Shown here piece after piece: positions 4,209-61,257 of a stretch of 64,000 nt of DNA (positions within the stretch are counted from its first letter, which is position 1; the number at the start of each line of letters is the position of its first letter). The position numbers were made by a program, and so were the translations under genes. The stretch comes from Escherichia coli (lineage in GTDB: Bacteria > Pseudomonadota > Gammaproteobacteria > Enterobacterales > Enterobacteriaceae): the NCBI RefSeq assembly GCF_003334815.1, contig NZ_QOWO01000004.1, one strand, 5' to 3'. The notes beneath the pieces were generated by a model. It was not told the DNA's origin and did not search any database. It saw nothing but the letters and a program-made list of their open reading frames with translations.

Positions 4209-4291
4209 GTTGGAACACGATGTTGCACAGGCTGTGGTGTTAGGCCTGAAAATAGTAAATAAAAGAACCTGCCTCACCAGCAGGTTTTTTT
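4209..4291 (+). ncRNA. orzP: Antitoxin small RNA 2 (OrzP-like)
   Basis: 5' segment 4209..4228 GTTGGAACACGATGTTGCAC is complementary to the leader of toxin 2 at 4043..4062; intrinsic terminator at the 3' end. Confidence 0.6.
4266..4291 (+). terminator. Intrinsic terminator of sRNA 2
   Basis: Same AACCTGC...GCAGGTT stem and T-run as unit 1. Confidence 0.7.
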
Positions 4292-4402: not shown

Positions 4403-5491
4403 ATGTCACCGCAGAATAATCATCTGCAGCGTCCGCCTGCTGCTGTGTTATACGCCGATGAACTGGCAAAATTAAAACAAAATGATAACGCTCCTTGCCC
4501 GCCCGGTTGGCAGTTAAGTTTGCCTGCGGCCCGTGCTTTTATCCTTGGCGATAGCGCGCAAAATATTAGCCGTAAAGTGGTGATTAGTCCCTCCGCTGTC
4601 GAACGTATGTTAGTCACTCTTGCCACCGGGCGCGGTTTGATGTTGGTGGGGGAACCTGGCACCGCAAAATCTCTCCTGTCTGAATTACTGGCAACCGCTA
4701 TTAGCGGCGATGCCGGGTTAACCATCCAGGGCGGCGCATCTACTACCGAAGATCAAATCAAGTACGGCTGGAACTACGCCCTGCTTATCAATCATGGTCC
4801 ATCAACGGAAGCGCTGGTCCCTGCCCCGCTTTACCAGGGAATGCGCGACGGCAAAATCGTCCGTTTTGAAGAGATAACGCGTACACCGCTGGAAGTGCAA
4901 GACTGTCTGTTAGGTATGCTTTCTGACAGGGTGATGACGGTGCCGGAACTCACTGGTGAAGCCAGTCAGCTCTATGCGCGAGAAGGCTTTAATATTATTG
5001 CCACTGCCAATACCCGCGATCGCGGCGTCAATGAAATGAGTGCTGCGCTAAAGCGTCGCTTCGATTTTGAAACTGTCTTTCCGATTATGGATTTCGCCCA
5101 GGAGCTGGAGCTTGTCGCCAGTGCTTCGGCGCGTTTGCTGGCCCATAGCGGTATTCCGCATAAAGTGCCTGACGCGGTACTGGAGTTACTGGTCCGCACC
5201 TTCCGCGATCTGCGTGCCAACGGCGAAAAGAAAACGTCAATGGATACACTAACAGCGATTATGTCCACCGCTGAAGCCGTGAACGTGGCCCACGCCGTAG
5301 GCGTCCGCGCCTGGTTTTTAGCGAATCGCGCAGGTGAGCCAGCCGACCTGGTGGACTGCATTGCCGGAACCATCGTCAAAGATAACGAAGAAGATCGCGC
5401 TCGTCTGCGCCGTTACTTCGAACAACGAGTCGCCACACATAAAGAAGCTCACTGGCAGGCTTATTATCAAGCCCGCCACCGCCTGCCGTGA
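4403..5491 (+). CDS. yehL: MoxR/RavA-like AAA+ ATPase (362 aa)
   Basis: ORF track 4322..5491 trimmed to ATG 4403; Walker A GEPGTAKS in the translation. Confidence 0.8.
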   Translation: MSPQNNHLQRPPAAVLYADELAKLKQNDNAPCPPGWQLSLPAARAFILGDSAQNISRKVVISPSAVERMLVTLATGRGLMLVGEPGTAKSLLSELLATAISGDAGLTIQGGASTTEDQIKYGWNYALLINHGPSTEALVPAPLYQGMRDGKIVRFEEITRTPLEVQDCLLGMLSDRVMTVPELTGEASQLYAREGFNIIATANTRDRGVNEMSAALKRRFDFETVFPIMDFAQELELVASASARLLAHSGIPHKVPDAVLELLVRTFRDLRANGEKKTSMDTLTAIMSTAEAVNVAHAVGVRAWFLANRAGEPADLVDCIAGTIVKDNEEDRARLRRYFEQRVATHKEAHWQAYYQARHRLP

Positions 5492-5501
5492 GGAAAGATG
5501 C

Positions 5502-7781
5502 ATGAGCGAGCCGTTAATTGTCGGCATCCGGCATCATAGTCCGGCCTGCGCCCGGCTGGTGAAATCGTTAATCGAAAGCCAGCGGCCACGATACGTATTG
5601 ATTGAAGGCCCGGCTGATTTTAATGACCGGGTAGACGAACTGTTTTTAGCCCACCAGCTTCCGGTAGCTATTTACAGTTATTGCCAGTATCAGGACGGTG
5701 CAGCCCCCGGGCGTGGTGCCTGGACGCCATTTGCTGAATTTTCGCCGGAGTGGCAGGCGCTACAAGCCGCACGTCGTATTCAGGCACAAACTTACTTCAT
5801 CGATTTGCCTTGCTGGGCGCAGAGTGAAGAAGTGGACGATTCGCCTGATACGCAAGAGGAAAGCCAGGCCTTGCTGCTGCGTGCCACCCGCATGGATAAC
5901 AGCGACACCCTGTGGGATCACTTGTTCGAAGATGAAAGCCAGCAAACTGCATTACCCTCTGCACTGGCGCACTATTTTGCCCAACTGCGGGGCGACTCCC
6001 CCGGAGATGCTCTCAATCGTCTGCGCGAAGCCTTTATGGCCCGCTGGATTGGATGGGCGATGCAGCAAAATAATGGCGACGTGTTAGTTGTCTGCGGTGG
6101 CTGGCACGCTCCGGTACTGGCAAAAATGTGGCGCGAATGCCCGCAGGAAATTAACACGCCAGAATTGCCGTCGCTGGCAGATGCCGTTACAGGTTGTTAT
6201 CTCACCCCCTACAGTGAAAAGCGCCTTGATGTGCTGGCAGGATACCTTTCCGGAATGCCTGCCCCGGTCTGGCAAAACTGGTGCTGGCAGTGGGGCTTAC
6301 AGCAGGCGGGAGAACAACTGCTAAAAACGGTTCTCACCCGTTTGCGCCAGCACAAGTTGCCTGCTTCGACCGCGGATATGGCTGCCGCACATCTGCATGC
6401 AATGGCACTGGCACAGTTGCGCGGTCATACACTACCGTTACGCACTGACTGGCTGGATGCCATAGCAGGATCGCTGATTAAAGAAGCCCTGAATGCGCCG
6501 TTGCCGTGGAGCTATCGCGGCGTTATTCATCCCGACACCGATCCGATTCTGCTAACGTTGATAGACACATTAGCGGGTGACGGATTCGGTAAACTTGCCC
6601 CTTCTACGCCACAACCTCCTCTGCCAAAAGATGTCACCTGCGAACTGGAACGTACCGCAATCTCCCTTCCGGCGGAGCTTACCTTAAATCGCTTTAACCC
6701 CAATGGACTAGCGCAAAGTCAGGTGTTACATCGGCTGGCAATACTGGAGATCCCAGGGATTGTGCGCCAGCAGGGAAGCACACTGACACTTGCAGGCAAC
6801 GGTGAAGAACACTGGAAATTAACCCGCCCGCTTAGCCAGCATGCGGCATTGATTGAGGCCGCCTGCTTTGGTGCCACACTCCAGGAAGCCGCACGCCATA
6901 AATTAGAAGCCGATATGCTGGACGCGGGTGGAATCGGCAGTATCACCACATGTCTTAGCCAGGCGGCGTTAGCGGGTCTGGCGTCCTTCAGTCAACAATT
7001 ACTGGAGCAACTCACATTATTAATCGCCCAGGAAAATCAATTTGCCGAAATGGGCCTGGCGCTGGAAGTGCTTTACGCCTTATGGCGGCTGGATGAAATT
7101 AGCGGTATGCAAGGCGCGCAGATATTACAAACGACGTTATGCGCGGCTACCGATCGCACGCTGTGGCTGTGTGAATCTAACGGCAGACCGGATGAAAAGG
7201 AGTTTCACGCTCACCTGCATAACTGGCAGGCGCTTTGCCATATCCTGCGCGATCTACATAACGGCGTTAATTTACCCGGCGTTTCTCTTTCTGCGGCGGT
7301 AGCCTTACTGGAGCGACGCAGTCAGGCGATTCATGCCCCGGCGCTGGATCGCGGCGCGGCTCTTGGCGCACTAATGCGTCTGGAACATCCCAACGCCAGT
7401 GCCGAAGCGGCGCTGATGATGCTGGCGCAGTTATCCCCGGCACAATCCGGCGAGGCGCTGCACGGTTTGCTGGCATTAGCCCGTCATCAACTGGCCTGTC
7501 AGCCGGCATTTATCGCCGGTTTCAGCAGTCATTTAAATCAACTAAGTGATGCCGATTTTACCAATGCCCTGCCCGATTTACGCGCGGCGATGGCCTGGCT
7601 ACCGCCACGAGAACGCGGGATGCTGGCGCATCAGGTGCTTGAGCATTATCAACTGGCGCAACTTCCCGTTTCGGCACTGCAAATGCCGTTGCATTGTCCT
7701 CCGCAAGCCATTGCACATCATCAACAACTCGAACAGCAGGCACTGGCATCGCTGCAAAACTGGGGAGTTTTCCATGTCTGA
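5502..7781 (+). CDS. yehM: Large protein of unknown function (759 aa), partner of yehL/yehP
   Basis: ORF track 5334..7781 trimmed to ATG 5502 (starts MSEPLIVGIRHH); no motif I recognise. Confidence 0.75.
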   Translation: MSEPLIVGIRHHSPACARLVKSLIESQRPRYVLIEGPADFNDRVDELFLAHQLPVAIYSYCQYQDGAAPGRGAWTPFAEFSPEWQALQAARRIQAQTYFIDLPCWAQSEEVDDSPDTQEESQALLLRATRMDNSDTLWDHLFEDESQQTALPSALAHYFAQLRGDSPGDALNRLREAFMARWIGWAMQQNNGDVLVVCGGWHAPVLAKMWRECPQEINTPELPSLADAVTGCYLTPYSEKRLDVLAGYLSGMPAPVWQNWCWQWGLQQAGEQLLKTVLTRLRQHKLPASTADMAAAHLHAMALAQLRGHTLPLRTDWLDAIAGSLIKEALNAPLPWSYRGVIHPDTDPILLTLIDTLAGDGFGKLAPSTPQPPLPKDVTCELERTAISLPAELTLNRFNPNGLAQSQVLHRLAILEIPGIVRQQGSTLTLAGNGEEHWKLTRPLSQHAALIEAACFGATLQEAARHKLEADMLDAGGIGSITTCLSQAALAGLASFSQQLLEQLTLLIAQENQFAEMGLALEVLYALWRLDEISGMQGAQILQTTLCAATDRTLWLCESNGRPDEKEFHAHLHNWQALCHILRDLHNGVNLPGVSLSAAVALLERRSQAIHAPALDRGAALGALMRLEHPNASAEAALMMLAQLSPAQSGEALHGLLALARHQLACQPAFIAGFSSHLNQLSDADFTNALPDLRAAMAWLPPRERGMLAHQVLEHYQLAQLPVSALQMPLHCPPQAIAHHQQLEQQALASLQNWGVFHV

Positions 7782-51546: not shown

Positions 51547-52635
51547 ATGAATAACCGGGAAAAGGAGATCCTTGCAATTTTACGGCGTAACCCGCTGATT
51601 CAGCAGAACGAAATTGCGGACATGCTGCAAATCAGCCGTTCGCGCGTTGCGGCGCATATTATGGATTTAATGCGCAAAGGCCGGATTAAAGGCAAAGGTT
51701 ACATTCTCACCGAGCAGGAATACTGCGTAGTGGTGGGGACAATCAATATGGATATTCGCGGGATGGCGGATATCCGTTACCCGCAATCGGCTTCTCATCC
51801 CGGTACAATTCATTGCTCAGCGGGCGGCGTGGGACGCAACATCGCCCACAATCTGGCGCTGTTAGGCCGTGACGTCCATTTGCTTTCAGTGATTGGCGAT
51901 GACTTTTATGGCGAAATGCTCCTGGAAGAAACGCGCCGTGCCGGCGTGAATGTCTCCGGCTGCGTTCGTTTGCATGGTCAAAGCACATCGACGTATCTGG
52001 CAATTGCCAATCGAGACGATCAAACCGTGCTGGCGATTAACGATACCCATCTGCTGGAACAGTTGACACCGCAACTACTGAACGGGTCGCGCGATTTACT
52101 TCGTCATGCGGGCGTGGTACTGGCTGATTGCAACCTGACAGCCGAGGCGCTGGAATGGGTCTTTACCCTCGCTGATGAAATCCCGGTGTTTGTCGATACC
52201 GTTTCAGAATTCAAAGCGGGCAAAATCAAACACTGGCTGGCGCATATTCACACCCTGAAACCCACTTTACCGGAGCTGGAAATTTTATGGGGACAGGCGA
52301 TCACCAGCGATGCTGACCGTAATACCGCAGTGAATGCATTGCATCAGCAAGGTGTTCAGCAACTGTTTGTTTATTTGCCCGATGAGTCAGTTTATTGCAG
52401 CGAAAAGGATGGAGAACAATTTTTGCTGACCGCGCCAGCGCATACGACAGTAGACAGTTTTGGTGCTGACGATGGTTTTATGGCGGGCCTGGTATATAGC
52501 TTTCTTGAAGGATACAGTTTCCGCGACAGCGCCCGTTTTGCGGTAGCCTGCGCGGCAATTTCGCGCGCCAGCGGCAGCTTAAACAACCCTACCCTGTCTG
52601 CCGATAACGCGCTTTCATTAGTGCCAATGGTGTAA
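51547..52635 (+). CDS. yeiI: PfkB-family sugar/nucleoside kinase with N-terminal HTH (362 aa)
   Basis: ORF track; paralogous to psuK plus an N-terminal HTH-like segment. Confidence 0.8.
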   Translation: MNNREKEILAILRRNPLIQQNEIADMLQISRSRVAAHIMDLMRKGRIKGKGYILTEQEYCVVVGTINMDIRGMADIRYPQSASHPGTIHCSAGGVGRNIAHNLALLGRDVHLLSVIGDDFYGEMLLEETRRAGVNVSGCVRLHGQSTSTYLAIANRDDQTVLAINDTHLLEQLTPQLLNGSRDLLRHAGVVLADCNLTAEALEWVFTLADEIPVFVDTVSEFKAGKIKHWLAHIHTLKPTLPELEILWGQAITSDADRNTAVNALHQQGVQQLFVYLPDESVYCSEKDGEQFLLTAPAHTTVDSFGADDGFMAGLVYSFLEGYSFRDSARFAVACAAISRASGSLNNPTLSADNALSLVPMV

Positions 52636-52741: not shown

Positions 52742-53992
52742 TCAAGCTAAACCAATAAAGAGCCCGGCAATGGTCGCACTCATCAAGTTGGAAAGCGTCG
52801 CCGCCGCCAGCGCCCGTAAACCAAGCTGGGCGATTTCCGGCGCACGGTGTGGCGCAACCGCAGAAAACGCCCCCACCACCACCCCGATAGAACCAAAGTT
52901 AGCGAAACCGCACAACGCGAAGGAAATAATCGCCACAGTTTTAGCATCGAGAGTGCCAGCCGTTTGCAGATAGGGTGAGAAATTGAGATAAGCGACAAAT
53001 TCATTTATTGCCAGTTTCTGTCCAATCAAACTCCCGGCAAGATTCGCATCACTCCAGTCCACACCCATCACCCACGCCAGTGGAGCCAGCAGGTAACCTA
53101 AAATGGACTCCAGCGAGGCATGTTCAAAACCAAACCAGCCACCAACGCCGCCGATAATACCGTTAATCAACGCAATTATTGCAACAAATGCCATCACCAC
53201 TGTTGCCACACCTGCGGCGATTTTCAGCCCGGTCATTGCCCCTGTCGCAGCGGCTTCAATAATGCTTTTTGGCGGTGTTTCGGTGAAAGAGAGGTTATTA
53301 AAGGAAACCTGCGAAGATTCCGTTGCCGGGCTTAACAGGCGGGCAAACAAGATCCCGCCAGGGATCGCCATTAATGATGCCGCCAGCAGATATTCCACAG
53401 GCACGCCCAGTGCGGCGTAACCAATCATTGTCGAACCAGCAATCGAGGCCATGCCACTACAAATCGCTGTAAATAATTCATTGCGATTCAGACGATCGAT
53501 AAAGGGTTTGACGATTGCCGGAATTTCGTTTTGCCCGAGGAAAATGGTGGTGACCGCGACGAATGACTCGATCTTGCTGATATTTAATGCTTTCTGGAAG
53601 ATACCGCCGAGAATTCGAATTAAAATCCCCATCACACCGATGTAGTAGAGAATACTCACCAGCGCGGTGACGAAGATAATTGCCGGTAACACCCTGAAAC
53701 CAAAGATAAATCCTGCACCATCAAATAAGGTATCCATTTTCGGTCCGACCAGAGAACCGAAGATAAATGCGCTACCCGCGTCGCTGTACGCCATCACTTT
53801 ATGCACGCCAAAAGCGACTTTTTCAGCGACCCAACGCCCTGGCGGTAACCAAAGCATAATGCCGCCAATCACGACCTGTAACACTAACGCCGCGCCAACG
53901 GTACGCAGGCTGATCTTCTTCTTGTTTACTGACAGTAAAAACGCAATCGTCAGCAATACCACCATTCCCAGAACACTTCTCATGACATCCAT
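52742..53992 (-). CDS. nupX: NupC-family nucleoside transporter (416 aa)
   Basis: ORF track; close paralog of psuT. Confidence 0.85.
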   Translation of the reverse strand: MDVMRSVLGMVVLLTIAFLLSVNKKKISLRTVGAALVLQVVIGGIMLWLPPGRWVAEKVAFGVHKVMAYSDAGSAFIFGSLVGPKMDTLFDGAGFIFGFRVLPAIIFVTALVSILYYIGVMGILIRILGGIFQKALNISKIESFVAVTTIFLGQNEIPAIVKPFIDRLNRNELFTAICSGMASIAGSTMIGYAALGVPVEYLLAASLMAIPGGILFARLLSPATESSQVSFNNLSFTETPPKSIIEAAATGAMTGLKIAAGVATVVMAFVAIIALINGIIGGVGGWFGFEHASLESILGYLLAPLAWVMGVDWSDANLAGSLIGQKLAINEFVAYLNFSPYLQTAGTLDAKTVAIISFALCGFANFGSIGVVVGAFSAVAPHRAPEIAQLGLRALAAATLSNLMSATIAGLFIGLA

Positions 53993-54091
53993 AGTGATTA
54001 TCTCTTCATGTCATATTGGGCGACGGCTTTCTGCCCATCAGAAATAGCCAGGCCTGCATCTTGCGATACCGGCCCGGCTTGTTATCAACAC

Positions 54092-55033
54092 TTAATGGGT
54101 TTTGATGTAGCCGCGCACGCACTCTTCGACTAATCCCCAGAACCAGTCTGTATCAATAGTGATGCCGACTTTGGTATTGGCGGGCTTGCCAAGAACGCCC
54201 AGCTCGTCGCAGACGGTACGCCCATAGCAAGGGCCACTGTTGACGTCCACTTCGACGTACATCTCCTGGGTTTTAATGCCATCAGGGTTAATCAGATAAC
54301 CGATGCAGGTGGCGTCGTGCACCGGGCCGCCAGCAAGGCCGTAGTTTTCGAACTGCGTTTTGAGAGTGAAGTTCATGATGTCGCTGAACAGCTCTCCGGC
54401 GGGGCCGCCTGCCCTTTCCATCCGAGCAATCACGTCCGGGGTGCAAACGGTCTGGTTGGTGAGATCGAGGCCCATCATCACTAATGGAACGCCGGAGGTG
54501 AACACTACGCGTGCGGCTTCCGGGTCGGCAAAGATGTTGAACTCGGCAGATGGCGTGAAGTTGCCTGTACCGTAAGCGCCGCCCATTAGCACAATTTCAC
54601 GGATTTTGGGCAGGATCGCGGGTTGCATACGCATTGCCACCGCGATATTTGAAAGCGGACCAACCGGCACCAGAGTGATATCGCCATCGCTTGCCATCAG
54701 GGTATCAATGATATATTTCACCGCATGAGTGCTTTCTGCCTGGCGGGTCAGCGGCTCGAATACCGGGCCATCCAGTCCGGTTTCACCGTGAATATTATCG
54801 GCAACGATTTGTTGACGCATAATGGGCTGCGGCATCCCCGCATAAACCGGAACATTAATCTCCAGTTTCTGGCAAACATTCAGGCCATTAATTAATGTTT
54901 TATCAAGCGTCTGATTACCCGCTACAATAGTGATGCCTAATAAATCTATTGCCGGATGTTTCGCCGCCATCATTATAGCAATAGCATCATCATGACCCGG
55001 ATCACAATCCAGAATAATTTTTCTCTTTTCCAT
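54092..55033 (-). CDS. rihB: Pyrimidine-specific ribonucleoside hydrolase (313 aa)
   Basis: N-terminal DCDPGHDDA motif. Confidence 0.9.
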
Positions 55034-55201
55034 TGTTTATTTCCTCTGTTTCCAGTTGCGTTATTTTTTCTACAGCAAAGAAAATTCGACCGGGCCGATG
55101 ATTGAATCTTAACAACAGCGTACGTATGCTAAATATGAGAAATCTCATAGCGGATAAACATCGTGAAAGAAATCCACAATAATGATCTTAAGCAGCAATT
55201 G

Positions 55202-55861
55202 ATGAGTGAATCCGCGTTTAAGGATTGCTTTTTAACGGATGTTTCAGCCGATACGCGGCTGTTTCATTTTTTAGCGCGTGACTACATTGTGCAGGAAGGG
55301 CAACAGCCGTCCTGGCTGTTTTACCTGACGCGAGGCCGCGCCAGGCTTTACGCCACGCTAGCTAATGGTCGCGTGTCGCTGATCGATTTCTTTGCCGCCC
55401 CCTGTTTTATTGGCGAGATTGAGTTAATCGATAAAGACCATGAACCGCGTGCGGTGCAGGCTATTGAAGAGTGTTGGTGCCTTGCGCTCCCTATGAAACA
55501 TTACCGTCCGCTGTTATTAAACGACACGCTATTTTTACGAAAACTCTGCGTCACCTTAAGTCATAAAAATTATCGTAATATTGTTTCTTTAACTCAGAAT
55601 CAATCATTTCCGTTAGTGAATCGCCTGGCAGCATTTATATTACTCTCGCAGGAAGGTGATCTTTATCACGAAAAGCATACGCAAGCGGCAGAGTATTTAG
55701 GCGTTTCTTATCGACATCTTTTATATGTTCTCGCGCAGTTCATTCACGACGGTTTATTAATTAAAAGCAAGAAAGGGTATCTCATTAAAAACAGAAAGCA
55801 GTTGTCAGGACTGGCGCTGGAGATGGACCCGGAGAATAAATTCTCCGGGATGATGCAGTAA
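55202..55861 (+). CDS. yeiL: CRP/FNR-family transcriptional regulator (219 aa)
   Basis: ORF track 55163..55861 (GTG) trimmed to ATG 55202. Confidence 0.8.
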
Positions 55862-57275: not shown

Positions 57276-58214
57276 TTAACCCGCGAGACGCTGATATTCT
57301 TTGGCAATTTCGCTCGCCAGAATGGCGTTGTTGAACACCAGCTGGATGTTGGATTTCAGGCTGTCACCGCCGGTCAGTTCAGCAACGCGCGCCAGCAGGA
57401 ATGGCGTACTTTCTTTACCAATGACTCCCTGAGCTTCAGCTTCAGCTACCGCCTGATCGATCGCCGCATTGATAGTGTGTTCCGGCATAGCAAACTGTTC
57501 CGGGATCGGGTTCGCTACCACGAGGCCACCGTTCAGACCGCTTTGCCATTTCACCGCCATTGCACGGGCAATTTCGCTGGCGCTGTCGAGACGAATGCTG
57601 ACGTCAAACGGGCTGGTGCGGCAGAAAAACGCAGGCAGCGCTTTAGTCTGATAGCCAATTAACGGCACACCGAAGGTTTCTAAATACTCAGTGGTTAATC
57701 CTAAATCGAGAATAGATTTCGCCCCGGCACAAACAACGGTGACATTAGTATTTGCCAGTTCTTGCAAATCGGCAGAAATATCGAAGGTATGTTCCGCCCC
57801 GCGATGCACACCACCAATTCCCCCGGTGGCAAATACTTTAATTCCGGCAAGCGCCGCAATAATCATCGTTGAAGCCACAGTGGTTGCGCCATTTTTTCCG
57901 GCGGCAACAACAAAAGGTAAATCGCGACGACTAACTTTGGTCACGTTATGCCCTTCACGACCCAGTAATTCAATTTCTTCTTTGCTTAACCCCACTTTCA
58001 TCACGCCGCCAATAATGGCGATCGTGGCAGGTACAGCGCCCTGTTTACGAATAGTTTCTTCAACTTCAATTGCGGTCTGGGCATTTTGTGGGAACGGCAT
58101 CCCGTGAGAAATAATGGTCGATTCCAGCGCCACAACCGGTTTTTTGTTTTTTAAAGCGTCCTGCACTTCCGGGGAAATTTGTAATAATTCAGGGGAAATT
58201 TTTAATTCAGACAT
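57276..58214 (-). CDS. psuG: Pseudouridine-5'-phosphate glycosidase (312 aa)
   Basis: ORF track; synteny. Confidence 0.85.
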   Translation of the reverse strand: MSELKISPELLQISPEVQDALKNKKPVVALESTIISHGMPFPQNAQTAIEVEETIRKQGAVPATIAIIGGVMKVGLSKEEIELLGREGHNVTKVSRRDLPFVVAAGKNGATTVASTMIIAALAGIKVFATGGIGGVHRGAEHTFDISADLQELANTNVTVVCAGAKSILDLGLTTEYLETFGVPLIGYQTKALPAFFCRTSPFDVSIRLDSASEIARAMAVKWQSGLNGGLVVANPIPEQFAMPEHTINAAIDQAVAEAEAQGVIGKESTPFLLARVAELTGGDSLKSNIQLVFNNAILASEIAKEYQRLAG

Positions 58215-59143
58215 TCTGCGTTCTCCACTAACGATATAACGTTGGCAATCGATAAATCGGGGTTATTGGTGTATTCACAGGAGAGCGCCATTGACGAACA
58301 TCCCTGTGCGAAACGAACAGATTCGGCAAACGGCATTCCGTCTACCCAACACGAAGCAAGTCCCGCCATCATGGCATCGCCCGCTCCGGTAACATTAATA
58401 ACATTGGTTTTGATCGGCGCAGACCAGCCACTTTCACCGCTGATATCGCTGTAATAAACGCCGTCGCCGCCCATGCTCAATACCAGTCGGTTCAGGCCAT
58501 GTTGATGGAACCAGGCAGCAACTTTTGCCACATCTTCACGCCCTGACAGCGCAATCCCACTCAGGGTTTCCGCTTCAAGGCGGTTTGGCTTGAGAGTGTG
58601 GATCTGATTTAGACGGTCGCGCACTTTGACACATTTCCATGCCGAAACCGGATCGACAAATACGGGTACGTTGGCGGCATTATCCAGAATCCATGCCAGT
58701 GCCTCTTCACTGATATTACAGTCCGCGACAATGACCTTTGCCCTCTGAATAAATTCACCGTGCTGTGCGAGATATTCAGCTGTAATAGCGTTGCTAATAT
58801 TCATGTCATTTATAGCAACCAGCATTTCACCGGTATTATCGAGTAATGATAAATAACTCGACGTATTTTCTCCCGGCACAATCAGGCATTTATCGACATA
58901 AACGCCAGATTGATTGGTTTGCGTTAGCAGCGATTGACCATAAAAATCACTGCCTACGGCGCTCAGTAGCCAGGCTTTGTTACCCAGCAACGCCAGGTTT
59001 TGTGCAATATTGCGCCCTACTCCACCAGGCGTAAATTTTATTTTACCTGGATTTGAATCCGCATAATTTAATGATTCATGTGAATATCCGGCGACATCAA
59101 TATTCGCCGAACCTATAATTACGACATAATCCTTTTCGCGCAT
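58202..59143 (-). CDS. psuK: Pseudouridine kinase, PfkB family (313 aa)
   Basis: ORF track; 13-nt overlap with the psuG start. Confidence 0.85.
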   Translation of the reverse strand: MREKDYVVIIGSANIDVAGYSHESLNYADSNPGKIKFTPGGVGRNIAQNLALLGNKAWLLSAVGSDFYGQSLLTQTNQSGVYVDKCLIVPGENTSSYLSLLDNTGEMLVAINDMNISNAITAEYLAQHGEFIQRAKVIVADCNISEEALAWILDNAANVPVFVDPVSAWKCVKVRDRLNQIHTLKPNRLEAETLSGIALSGREDVAKVAAWFHQHGLNRLVLSMGGDGVYYSDISGESGWSAPIKTNVINVTGAGDAMMAGLASCWVDGMPFAESVRFAQGCSSMALSCEYTNNPDLSIANVISLVENAECLN

Positions 59144-59210
59144 AGCACGTCCTCTGGTAAAAAATTACCAACCCTGTCAATCCACAAGAATATAGATACT
59201 GCAAAGACGG

Positions 59211-59246
59211 TTTAAACATGTGTTCATATTTAAACATGTGCTCATA
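59211..59246. repeat. Perfect tandem 18-bp direct repeat upstream of psuK
   Basis: TTTAAACATGTGTTCATA followed immediately by TTTAAACATGTGCTCATA; one mismatch. Confidence 0.7.
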
Positions 59247-59380
59247 GTATGCATGTTTTACGTAAAGTAAATTACCGCCAGAGAGGCAAAATGGGCAGAT
59301 TTGAGCAGGCTCACAAAATGCGATTAAATGCCTGAATTACAAAAGCGAGGAATTTGTGACGGGATGCACAGAACAGAACA

Positions 59381-59410
59381 ATAAAAAAGGGCAGAAAATA
59401 ATCTGCCCTT
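59381..59410 (-). terminator. Intrinsic terminator of fruBKA
   Basis: AAGGGCAG-loop-CTGCCCTT followed by TTTTTT on the minus strand. Confidence 0.75.
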
Positions 59411-59565
59411 GAGGAAATAACCTGAGTGTTTGATGAACGTTTGAAGTTTCTACTGAAAAATAAAACCATTTAAATTCATAAAATTACATTCACAAACCGG
59501 TCATTCTCTTTGCGCTCATCAAATGTTACAGGACAGGAAATTTCTGCCCTGTAACACACCTTTTA

Positions 59566-61257
59566 TTACGCTGCTTTCGCTACTGCGTCCACTTCCGGAC
59601 GTTTCAGGAAGGCATAGGCCAAACCCGCCACCAGCGTACCGGCAATAATTGCTACCAGGTAACCCAATACCGGCGTAATAGCGCCAGGGATCAGCAGAAC
59701 AAACAGACCACCGTGCGGTGCCATCAGTTTCGCACCAATCGCCATTGAGATTGCGCCAGTCAGCGCCCCACCCACGATACAGCACGGCAGCACACGCATC
59801 GGATCACGAGCAGCAAACGGAATTGCACCTTCCGAAATGAAGCACAGTCCCAATACCAGAGCGGCTTTGCCACCTTCCTGCTGCGCTTTGTCGAATTTGC
59901 GACGCGCCACCATTGTTGCCAGACCCATTGCCAGCGGTGGCACCATACCTGCCGCCATAATCGCCGCCATCGGGCCATAGGTTTGAGTACTCAGCAGACC
60001 CACACCGAATGCGTACGCTGCTTTGTTTACCGGACCGCCCATGTCAGTACACATCATGCCACCGAGGATCGCCCCCAGCAGAACCGCATTCGCAGTCCCC
60101 ATGGTCTGCAGCCAGTGAGTCAGCCCTTCGAGAATGCCAGCAACTGGTTTACCGATCAGGTAGATCATCGCCAGACCGACCACCAGACTGGAAATTAGCG
60201 GAATGATCAGGATCGGTTTCAGCGCCTCCATACTCTGTGGCAGTTTCAATTGCGTACTGATTAACTTCGCAATGTAACCAGCCAGGAAGCCCGCAATAAT
60301 ACCACCAATGAAGCCAGAACCGGTGCTGACCGCCAGCATACCGCCAATCAGACCCGGAGTGAGGCCCGGACGATCGGCAATGGAAAAGGCAATATAACCT
60401 GCCAGTACCGGCACCATCAGCGCAAAGGCTGAACCACCACCAATCTGCATCAGCGCCGCAGCCAACGTACCCGGCTCTTTAAACGCTTCGATACCAAAAG
60501 CAAAAGAAAGCGCGATACACAGACCACCTGCAACGACCATCGGCAGCATGTAAGAAACGCCCGTCAGCAAGTGACGGTATGCGCCTGCACTCTCTTTCTT
60601 ACTTTCAGTGGTCGCCGTTTGAGCTTTGCCCGCCGGTTCATACGGCGTTGCTTCAGCAACCGCTTTATCCAGTTCCTGCGCGGTTTTCTTCAGCGCCAGA
60701 CCGGTAGAGGTACGATACATCGGTTTACCAGCAAATTTCGCCAGATCCACTTCGATATCTGCCGCCACAATCACCAGATCCGCTGCTGCGACTTCTTCGG
60801 GAGTGATTGCATTACCCGCGCCAACAGAACCACGGGTTTCAACTTTCACCCACCAGCCACGTTTTTTCGCTTCGGTTTCAATGGCTTCAGCCGCCATAAA
60901 GGTGTGTGCTACGCCAGTCGGGCAAGCAGTCACCGCAACTACGCGTTTCGGACCGCTGGCGGCAACTGGTGCTGTCGCAGCGACCGGCGCAGTGTAAGGT
61001 TTCGCATGGCCTTTGGCTTCACTCAGGAACAGCTCAGGGTGCGCAACTGCCCGGGAAATATCGCCCAGCCAGACATTTTTACCGTTCAGCGCGCTGTCGT
61101 TCGGGATGGAATCACCGAGAACAATCGCCATTTCAGCGTCGTTCGGATTGTCGATGATTTCCAGTTTTGCTTTTCGCGCCGCCGCGCCCAGCAGGGTCTT
61201 CGCCATATAGGCGCGTGCCTGACCGAGATTAGCGTCAATAATCAGCAGCGTTTTCAT
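59566..61257 (-). CDS. fruA: Fructose PTS EIIB'BC component (563 aa)
   Basis: ORF track; synteny. Confidence 0.9.
   Translation of the reverse strand: MKTLLIIDANLGQARAYMAKTLLGAAARKAKLEIIDNPNDAEMAIVLGDSIPNDSALNGKNVWLGDISRAVAHPELFLSEAKGHAKPYTAPVAATAPVAASGPKRVVAVTACPTGVAHTFMAAEAIETEAKKRGWWVKVETRGSVGAGNAITPEEVAAADLVIVAADIEVDLAKFAGKPMYRTSTGLALKKTAQELDKAVAEATPYEPAGKAQTATTESKKESAGAYRHLLTGVSYMLPMVVAGGLCIALSFAFGIEAFKEPGTLAAALMQIGGGSAFALMVPVLAGYIAFSIADRPGLTPGLIGGMLAVSTGSGFIGGIIAGFLAGYIAKLISTQLKLPQSMEALKPILIIPLISSLVVGLAMIYLIGKPVAGILEGLTHWLQTMGTANAVLLGAILGGMMCTDMGGPVNKAAYAFGVGLLSTQTYGPMAAIMAAGMVPPLAMGLATMVARRKFDKAQQEGGKAALVLGLCFISEGAIPFAARDPMRVLPCCIVGGALTGAISMAIGAKLMAPHGGLFVLLIPGAITPVLGYLVAIIAGTLVAGLAYAFLKRPEVDAVAKAA

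Follow-up and report, generated by a model that had tools for sequence, protein, structure and literature searches.

Tandem palindromic sites at the psuK promoter of Escherichia coli as probable operators of the pseudouridine operon, with YeiI as the candidate repressor

Introduction

Repressors of the ROK family such as Mlc, NagC and Bacillus XylR are one-component regulators in which an N-terminal winged helix is joined to a kinase-fold sensor of the pathway substrate. Their palindromic operators overlap catabolic or transport promoters, and in this family active paralogues stand beside non-catalytic regulators. Here, we describe a possibly similar arrangement at the pseudouridine operon psuK-psuG-psuT of Escherichia coli, in a window of 64,000 nucleotides (the whole stretch of DNA that was analysed, from contig NZ_QOWO01000004.1), where a tandem 18-bp repeat at 59211-59246 lies upstream of psuK. 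The two units of the repeat are probably two adjacent operators of the psuKGT promoter, and the protein most likely to bind them is YeiI, which would act as a pseudouridine-sensing repressor. Like the ROK repressors, YeiI carries an N-terminal winged helix in front of a kinase-fold sensor, but this sensor has a PfkB/ribokinase fold instead of the ROK/ASKHA fold, and its DNA binding, ligand and repressor role are predictions.

BirA, NadR and PutA provide a second comparison. Judging by their domains, fusion proteins of Serratia, Yersinia, Pasteurella, Shewanella and Aliivibrio appear to hold a pseudouridine kinase and a DNA-binding domain in one polypeptide. Unlike the ROK repressors, these fusions have intact catalytic motifs and are the only kinase in their operon, so that they may be truly bifunctional. 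Since the fusion gene sits behind the same motif as that found upstream of psuK, autoregulation is implied in these distant taxa. In E. coli, unlike in BirA, NadR and PutA, the two roles are apparently split between PsuK, an enzyme without a helix-turn-helix (HTH), and YeiI, which has the HTH and degenerate catalytic motifs. The promoter region itself is reminiscent of lac, with a probably weak promoter, a CRP-like site at about -70.5, dyads at and downstream of the predicted start site, and a -35 up-mutation that follows the logic of lacUV5. Unlike the lac operators, those of psuK would be adjacent (18 bp centre to centre) and not looped, and each is only 12-14 bp long. YeiI was still called an uncharacterised sugar kinase in papers of 2022 and 2025 (including PMC9061257), and our literature search found no description of a regulator, operator or promoter of the psu operon.

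Results and discussion

The tandem repeat consists of two conserved dyads

The two units of the repeat are contiguous and arranged head to tail, and they are identical at 17 of 18 positions, the sole difference being T/C at 59223/59241. Tandem Repeats Finder reported a period of 18, 2.0 copies and 94% matches with a score of 65, and a separate repeat finder recovered the same two 18-bp copies. Read along the psuK strand, the units are TATGAGCACATGTTTAAA and TATGAACACATGTTTAAA, and the last three bases of unit 2 (TAT on this strand) form part of the -10 hexamer. An earlier note on this DNA had described a perfect tandem 18-bp repeat about 70-100 bp upstream of the psuK start. The tandem arrangement holds, as does the position, with 68-103 bp between the repeat and the psuK ATG (59143, minus strand), while the repeat is not perfect. 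The ACATGT core that was noticed in each unit is present in both, but the biologically relevant dyad is the wider GA(A/G)CA-YR-TGTT(T/C). A further CATGTTT pointed out in the same note does exist at 59253-59259, in the spacer between the -35 and -10 hexamers of the promoter, where it does not amount to a full third site.

The repeat is unique in its surroundings. With up to 3 mismatches allowed, a search of the 64 kb gave no further copy of the 18-mer, compared with 0.08 matches expected by chance. When the window was scanned with a position weight matrix (PWM), unit 2 scored 17.3-17.9 and unit 1 scored 18.9-19.6, against 13.4 for the next-best site. No above-chance site appeared elsewhere in the window, including the regions upstream of yeiI/nfo, nupX, rihB and yeiL.

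The conservation of the region was analysed in an alignment of the window with the psuK upstream regions of 11 species-representative genomes (three further Escherichia, E. albertii, two Buttiauxella, one Raoultella metagenome-assembled genome and four Citrobacter), which gave 12 sequences from four genera. The conserved blocks are, in order, the CRP-like site, the -35 hexamer, the -10 hexamer and the two dyads, and downstream of the dyads conservation is lost and returns only at a hairpin beside the Shine-Dalgarno sequence. Unit 2 falls in conserved alignment columns 134-148 and unit 1 in columns 151-167, each with a 12-bp imperfect dyad as its conserved core, the general form being GAACA-YR-TGTTC. 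The dyad is perfect in E. albertii (GAACATATGTTC), and that of Shewanella reads CAAACATATGTTTG. The PWM scores are equal on both strands, and the dyad symmetry is compatible with a dimeric HTH protein. The spacing of the dyads is exactly 18 bp, without insertions or deletions, in 12/12 sequences of Escherichia, Citrobacter, Raoultella and Buttiauxella, and all four half-sites are conserved, not just the inner TGTT...AACA pair. Within Escherichia, the operators are identical while the flanking DNA has diverged. Around the CATGTTT in the promoter spacer, AAAC and, after two variable bases, GC are also invariant across the genera.

The two units are far more alike in the E. coli clade (17/18) than in E. 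albertii and Citrobacter (about 12/18). The two-site arrangement is ancient and not a simple recent duplication, and the near-identity of the units is specific to the E. coli clade. Considering that this near-identity is restricted to one clade, it suggests that one site may have been lost there and then regenerated by slippage.

The dyads probably overlap a promoter that is hit by an adaptive mutation

Three papers (PMC7518454, PMC9509342, PMC6731689) report a recurrent change in the psuK/fruA intergenic region of K-12 colonising the mouse gut, in many mice and every time the identical A-to-C substitution, at 2257444 in NC_000913.2. The same change is given, as 'psuKp', for three long-term stationary-phase populations, and the supplement of that study contains the breseq annotation 'intergenic (-126/+297)' (PMC7858067). 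In the window, the 3' end of fruA precedes psuK, with the fruA stop codon ending at 59566. Counted from the two genes, 59143+126 and 59566-297 both give 59269, which places the adaptive mutation at window position 59269 (NC_000913.3 2259422). It is the third base of the -35 hexamer that is conserved, and the change turns TTTACT into TTGACT on the psuK strand. The window itself carries the ancestral A. The C allele occurs in 5 complete genomes, namely ER1821R, ER2683, S17-1 and ST18, which we take from their names to be K-12-derived laboratory strains, and the pigeon isolate fEC.1.

Because the adaptive change improves the -35 hexamer and both hexamers are conserved, the evidence supports the -35 at 59271..59266 and the -10 at 59249..59244, with a 16-bp spacer, as the working psuK promoter. 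The native hexamers match the consensus at 8/12 positions, which is under the threshold of our scan (the mutant reaches 9/12), and this fits a weak, activator-dependent promoter. The CRP-like block TTGTGA-N6-TCA(A/T)ATCT in columns 61-79 is nearly invariant across the four genera, and its core TGTGA-N6-TCA(A/T)A is kept in 12/12 sequences; TGTGAGCCTGCTCAAA matches TGTGA-N6-TCACA at 9/10 core positions. With an uncertainty of about 1 bp, the spacing of -70.5 fits a class I site (near -61.5, -71.5 or -82.5). Taken together, the psuK promoter is probably weak and CRP-dependent.

The transcription start is predicted near 59237 (NC_000913.3 about 2259390, minus strand). On this numbering, the unit that adjoins the conserved -10 hexamer, denoted as O1, is centred on the start, the other unit, denoted as O2, has its centre at about +18.5, and the repeats span about -6 to +24 (Table 1). 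As the conserved and mutation-hit -35 and -10 hexamers lie upstream of the repeats, the repeats would sit at the position of a repressor operator, and the activator site that the earlier note had offered as one reading is not supported.

Table 1. Positions of the operators, promoter elements and genes in the window
Feature	Position	Strand	Description
Repeat unit 2, proposed operator O1	59229..59246	-	Sequence TTTAAACATGTGCTCATA; core dyad GAGCACATGTTT at 59243..59232; centre 59237.5 = predicted start
Repeat unit 1, proposed operator O2	59211..59228	-	Sequence TTTAAACATGTGTTCATA; core dyad GAACACATGTTT at 59225..59214; centre 59219.5, about +18.5
-10 hexamer	59244..59249	-	TACTAT; TA(C/T)(T/C)AT in 12/12 sequences, 16 bp downstream of -35
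-35 hexamer	59266..59271	-	TTTACT; TTTAC invariant in 12 sequences; block ATTTACTT
CRP-like site	59297..59318	-	TTTTGTGAGCCTGCTCAAATCT (TGTGA-N6-TCAAA); centre 59307.5, about -70.5 from predicted start
psuK (yeiC)	58202..59143	-	Pseudouridine kinase, first gene of psuK-psuG-psuT; RefSeq annotation
yeiI	51547..52635	+	Winged helix (HTH_24) + PfkB protein, proposed repressor/pseudouridine sensor
yeiL	55163..55861	+	CRP/FNR-family regulator; part of the E. coli-clade nupX-rihB-yeiL insertion
Stem-loop/palindrome TGGTAA-TTTT-TTACCA	59155..59170	-	Directly 5' of the psuK Shine-Dalgarno sequence; in the minimum-free-energy fold

The motif is linked to yeiI and not to yeiL

In Citrobacter, Raoultella, Buttiauxella and E. 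albertii, the operon ends with psuT and is followed by convergent yeiI and then nfo, so that yeiI directly adjoins psuT in 8/8 loci outside the E. coli clade. In the window, nupX-rihB-yeiL (52742-55861) separates yeiI from psuT. The genes yeiL and rihB are limited to the three E. coli-clade loci and to the window, where nupX accompanies them, whereas yeiL is absent from the 8 other loci, all of which keep both sites. Based on this distribution, nupX-rihB-yeiL looks like an E. coli-clade-specific insertion between yeiI and psuT. No gene for a cyclic nucleotide-binding or CRP-type protein is listed within about 5-6 kb of the seven distant motif-bearing psu operons described below, and the winged helix of the YeiI family is the one DNA-binding domain that accompanies the motif in all taxa examined.

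The earlier note had proposed a duplicated operator for an unnamed regulator of psuKG-psuT, with YeiL and YeiI as candidates. The duplicated operator gains support from the palindromic units, their footprint in the alignment, the 18-bp phase that is kept and the recurrence of the motif at distant psu operons. With respect to the candidates, YeiI is favoured by linkage, homology and domains, while YeiL does not fit, as it is missing outside the E. coli clade where the sites persist.

The same motif precedes distant psu operons that encode winged-helix-PfkB fusions

Yersinia, Serratia, Xenorhabdus, Pasteurella, Shewanella, Aliivibrio and a Burkholderiaceae genome encode homologues of YeiI with 41-55% identity. 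In 7/7 of these distant loci, a fusion of winged helix-turn-helix (wHTH) and PfkB is the first gene of the operon, followed by psuG and usually then by a transporter of the NupC type, and no separate psuK was found in the seven loci. As an independent test, a palindromic PWM made from Enterobacteriaceae sites only was run on 11-13-kb stretches around these loci. The hit at the start of the psu operon ranked first, and lay within 40 bp upstream, in Serratia, Pasteurella, Shewanella and Aliivibrio; it ranked second in Yersinia and third in the Burkholderiaceae genome. By a binomial estimate, the chance of at least four first-rank hits in so small a window is about 1e-7. Each of the distant hits has a partner site 18-19 bp away, and we count the motif as conserved in 5-6 of the 7 distant taxa. 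Inspection by eye showed a -10-like hexamer immediately ahead of the first site in Serratia, Yersinia and the Burkholderiaceae genome; in Pasteurella, Shewanella and Aliivibrio it is not clear. The -35 in Serratia, Yersinia and Xenorhabdus is also TTTACT. The leader is very short in Serratia, Yersinia and Pasteurella, with 15-33 nt between the sites and the start codon.

Two further observations were made at these loci. A perfect distal palindrome of the same motif family, CCAAACACTTGTTTGG, is found in Yersinia (about 4751-4766 of locus L019), and a weaker, imperfect one, CCAAACAAAAGTTAGG, in Serratia (about 5743-5758 of locus L016), both about 250-275 bp upstream of the psu operon start. The distal palindrome could be an auxiliary looping operator; no equivalent was found in E. 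coli. In addition, the annotated starts of the wHTH-PfkB genes at L016 6001 and L019 5001 (372-aa products) fall inside the predicted operator/promoter. Because of the alignment with other members of the family, the true start of both genes is indicated 9 codons downstream, at MTSREKQIL.

YeiI combines a winged helix with a kinase domain that has degenerate catalytic motifs

A Pfam search of YeiI gave HTH_24 at residues 1-48 (E = 2.3e-10) and PfkB at 58-348 (E = 3e-68), and the kinase domain is most similar to pseudouridine kinase. No solved structure covers a wHTH-PfkB fusion. YeiI and the distant fusions have in common the winged-helix segment ISRSxVAxHIMxL. They differ in the kinase domain, in which PsuK and the fusions have the canonical PfkB motifs NxxE and GAGD with the catalytic Asp, whereas all four aligned YeiI orthologues (4/4) have GADD in place of GAGD, TxxE in place of NxxE and Ala in place of Asp29. 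The same orthologues keep the equivalents of Ser30, Asn143, Lys170, Asp164, Glu190 and Asp256, among which Ser30, Asn143 and Lys170 were described as determinants of pseudouridine affinity and of the catalytic conformational change (PMC9061257). Thus, the catalytic motifs of YeiI are degenerate while the reported pseudouridine-binding residues are kept. PsuK shares 59-60% identity with the kinase domains of the fusions from Yersinia, Serratia and Pasteurella, but only about 40% with YeiI.

Proposed mechanism and history

In the model that we favour, cyclic AMP-CRP bound at about -70.5 would recruit RNA polymerase to the weak promoter, and YeiI, a paralogue of PsuK, as a winged-helix dimer on O1, with co-operative binding to O2, would block open complex formation or promoter escape. 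Pseudouridine or pseudouridine-5'-phosphate bound in the PfkB domain would then release YeiI from the DNA. The mutation at 59269 would strengthen the -35 hexamer, so that polymerase competes better or initiates more often. The repeat sequence, its conservation, its place with respect to the promoter and its linkage to wHTH-PfkB genes are observed, while the exact start, repression as opposed to activation, the protein and the inducer are inferred.

Several observations weigh against this model. The position of the psuK transcription start, on which the placement of O1 depends, is a prediction. No copy of the motif was found near yeiI or nfo in the window, which gives no sign of autoregulation in E. 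coli, and the PWM scan of the Xenorhabdus locus did not reveal a clear proximal site. With their centres 18 bp apart, the dyads face different sides of the helix, an uncommon arrangement for dimers that bind co-operatively. Furthermore, the half-sites can also be read as TGTT-N8-AACA and, once transcribed, can pair in a 5' hairpin; both points are taken up below with the explanations that they favour. Lastly, the evolution experiments that gave the -35 mutation routinely inactivate repressors such as frlR, dgoR, srlR and kdgR, yet in the tables examined no mutation of yeiI or of the operators is given, and the -35 single-nucleotide polymorphism is the only one given for the psu locus. The lack of yeiI mutations is unexpected if the loss of YeiI alone gave strong derepression, but it would make sense if those environments already contain the inducer and the strength of the promoter is the limiting factor.

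With regard to the history of the system, we give even chances to the idea that YeiI and its relatives are undescribed winged-helix-PfkB one-component regulators, derived from an ancestral kinase-autorepressor that acted through tandem (G/A)AACA-NN-TGTT(T/C) and was split into PsuK and YeiI. The ancestral form, kinase and autorepressor in one, would persist as the first psu gene in Yersinia, Serratia, Pasteurellaceae, Shewanella and Vibrionaceae. In the lineage of Escherichia and Citrobacter, a duplication would have given rise to PsuK, an enzyme that lost the helix, and to YeiI, a pseudokinase sensor-repressor that kept it. Duplication of an ancestral bifunctional kinase-repressor appears to be the simplest history for the proteins compared.

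Promoter-overlapping operators are a familiar class of element, and the regulator hypothesis is the new part. If true, it would assign a function to an orphan transcription factor of E. coli K-12 and would explain why one -35 mutation was repeatedly fixed in gut and starvation evolution. The psuK/fruA A-to-C change can be read as an up-mutation in the -35 of a weak, probably repressible and probably CRP-dependent promoter. The locus would thereby have a cis-regulatory map (CRP site, -35, -10, O1 and O2) and a named regulator for which both a ligand and a loss of catalysis are predicted. The split of a kinase-repressor into an enzyme and a pseudoenzyme sensor, if true, would be a tidy example of subfunctionalisation, and a pseudouridine-responsive switch would become available for the engineering of pseudouridine production.

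Alternative explanations

The dyads may be real operators that are bound by a different factor, such as YeiL, a DeoR/GlpR-type, a RutR-like or another regulator of nucleoside metabolism, although we consider this unlikely. The inner half-sites read TGTT-N8-AACA, e.g. TGTTCGATATTGAACA in C. werkmanii. This form resembles the operators of DeoR and GlpR, and the 5-2-5 architecture of the dyads resembles the RutR box. For YeiL, a link to the neighbouring nucleoside genes was reportedly made in a paper of 2000. YeiL was proposed there to govern post-exponential nitrogen starvation (cited in PMC3590769). The fact that yeiI is not among the mutated genes in the evolution-experiment tables examined would also fit another regulator. 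Against YeiL, the gene yeiL (with rihB) is confined to E. coli-clade loci while 8 other loci keep both sites without it, and the seven distant motif-bearing loci list no cyclic nucleotide-binding or CRP-type gene nearby. The geometry also differs, with half-site centres 7 bp apart (a 2-bp gap) compared with 9-11 bp in CRP/FNR sites, whose layout is 5-N4/N6-5. A CRP/FNR-family site bound by YeiL was rejected on both grounds, yeiL being absent from 8 + 7 motif-bearing loci. In the case of the DeoR/GlpR-type reading, conservation extends beyond the inner TGTT...AACA to all four half-sites, and the sole DNA-binding domain that tracks the motif in every taxon examined is the YeiI-family winged helix.

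Other known sites were compared as well. The consensus sequences of ArgR, DeoR, GlpR, GntR, TyrR, KdgR, PuuR, CytR, RutR and Gram-positive LexA, compared by eye, include none that fits all four half-sites and none that tracks the operon. GAACA-NN-TGTTC shares letters with the Cheo box of Gram-positive LexA (GAAC-N4-GTTC) and the 5-2-5 layout with the RutR box of E. coli (TTGACCA-NN-TGGTCAA), and both are resemblances only. The LexA site of E. coli is CTGT-N8-ACAG, and RutR needs ACC/GGT at positions that read AAC/GTT in psuK. The motif goes with psu operons and genes of the YeiI family and not with SOS or rut genes. Direct repeats of the OmpR/PhoB type, with a period of about 10-11 bp at or upstream of the -35 hexamer, were also rejected, as the repeat here has a period of 18, consists of dyad units and lies downstream of the -10 hexamer.

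We find it distinctly improbable that the repeat acts in RNA, with the half-sites forming a 5'-terminal hairpin of the psuK leader that sets mRNA stability or translation without a dedicated DNA-binding protein. In favour of such a role, and against YeiI as a repressor at these sites, the 110-nt leader folds at -29.2 kcal/mol (z = -2.5 versus shuffled sequences) with an 11-bp hairpin of GUUUAAAUAUG and CAUGUUUAAAC. RNAalifold predicted that the second half-site pairs with the third in a 9-bp hairpin in 8/8 sequences, and a second conserved hairpin with one compensatory pair lies beside the Shine-Dalgarno sequence. On the other hand, any tandem pair of DNA palindromes gives such a hairpin automatically. 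The covariation term of RNAalifold was only -0.14 kcal/mol, neither of its two variable pairs is kept in the two Escherichia sequences of the set, and the E. coli hairpin and the consensus hairpin are in different registers. Furthermore, conservation also covers the first half-site, at or before the predicted start, and the fourth, which the consensus hairpin does not include, and in Serratia, Yersinia and Pasteurella the sites stand 15-33 nt from the start codon in a very short leader. A permissive Rfam scan of 58000-60500 revealed no known RNA element, with only a chance-level Ocean-VII match inside fruA.

It is very improbable that the repeats are upstream activator sites for a more proximal promoter, in which a -35 TTTAAA in unit 1 and a -10 TATATT at 59194..59189 would be separated by a 16-bp spacer. 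TTTAAA-16-TATATT is the only sigma-70-like match in a consensus scan of 59100-59600 (9/12), and the repeats would then lie at about -30 to -65. However, the one match of the scan compares with 1.3 expected in shuffled sequences, and neither TATATT nor the spacing is conserved outside Escherichia. In the E. coli genome of locus L004, a 14-bp deletion falls between TTTAAA and TATATT. The promoter-up change of the evolution studies maps to the conserved -35, another 50 bp upstream, and an 18-bp period is unlike the direct repeats of response regulators. As such, TTTAAA-16-TATATT was rejected as the main promoter, being both not conserved and broken by a natural deletion.

That the repeat is a neutral product of replication slippage without function is barely credible: its copy number is polymorphic in E. 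coli (1, 2 or 3 units) and the E. coli-clade units are far more alike (17/18) than the pairs of other genera, pointing to re-duplication or homogenisation at the level of the clade, but the two-site phase is kept at 18 bp over four genera and at 18-19 bp over several orders, the copy-number variants are rare, and the sites stay while the flanking intergenic DNA diverges.

Copy-number variants of the repeat in E. coli

Two units of the repeat are present in about 4,200 complete E. coli genomes, and among the roughly 4,200 that carry the region about 10 are copy-number variants. Three units (T, T, C at the variable position) were found in 8 complete genomes, e.g. NZ_CP015912.1 (L014, 181-234), and a single unit (C) in at least two, UC4224 and UC4315, both from cheese (NZ_CP104472.1 = L015, 181-198). 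Since genomes with one and with three units exist, slippage at the repeat is, as far as these alleles tell, still ongoing in E. coli, and the natural alleles are ready-made material on the effect of operator number. The gene psuK with its upstream region is present in 4,215-4,233 of 5,426 complete E. coli genomes and absent from about 22%. In strain 23AR1101, IS1 is inserted in psuK.

Other features between fruA and psuK

A perfect 10-bp palindrome, TTTACGTAAA, is located at 59257-59266 in the promoter spacer. It was rejected as a conserved site, as three other E. coli-clade sequences have TTTAAGTAAA and the sequence has diverged elsewhere, and it is probably fortuitous.

The stem of TGGTAA-TTTT-TTACCA, next to the Shine-Dalgarno sequence of psuK, has 6 pairs, with 98.6% of the cells in the alignment paired and one compensatory pair, which is C-G in 7 sequences, U-A in 4 and U-G in 1. 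Citrobacter, Buttiauxella and Raoultella have C-G in contrast with T-A, and E. albertii has the U-G intermediate. The element could be a leader structure or the site of another protein.

The DNA of the window is K-12-like. In the segment 59100-59600, the top matches listed, including C600, are all 99.8% identical to the window, with none at 100% among the complete genomes listed. Position 59459 of the window is A, compared with G in MG1655 (NC_000913.3) and in the K-12-like genome PG20180062 (ctactgaaaGataaaa), a difference that may be a stock variant, a sequencing difference or an edit. This position lies between the two terminators downstream of fruA. Between the fruA stop codon and the psuK promoter, two tandem hairpins occur at 59387-59410 and 59524-59556 (minus strand), of which the psuK-side one passes a terminator scan and the fruA-side one is an inverted repeat only. 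The tandem hairpins share the arm GGGCAGAAA/TTTCTGCCC and enclose about 110 nt without a match in Rfam. The stretch may be an RNA derived from the 3' untranslated region or a remnant insertion. In Buttiauxella, a single such terminator is found ahead of the psuK promoter.

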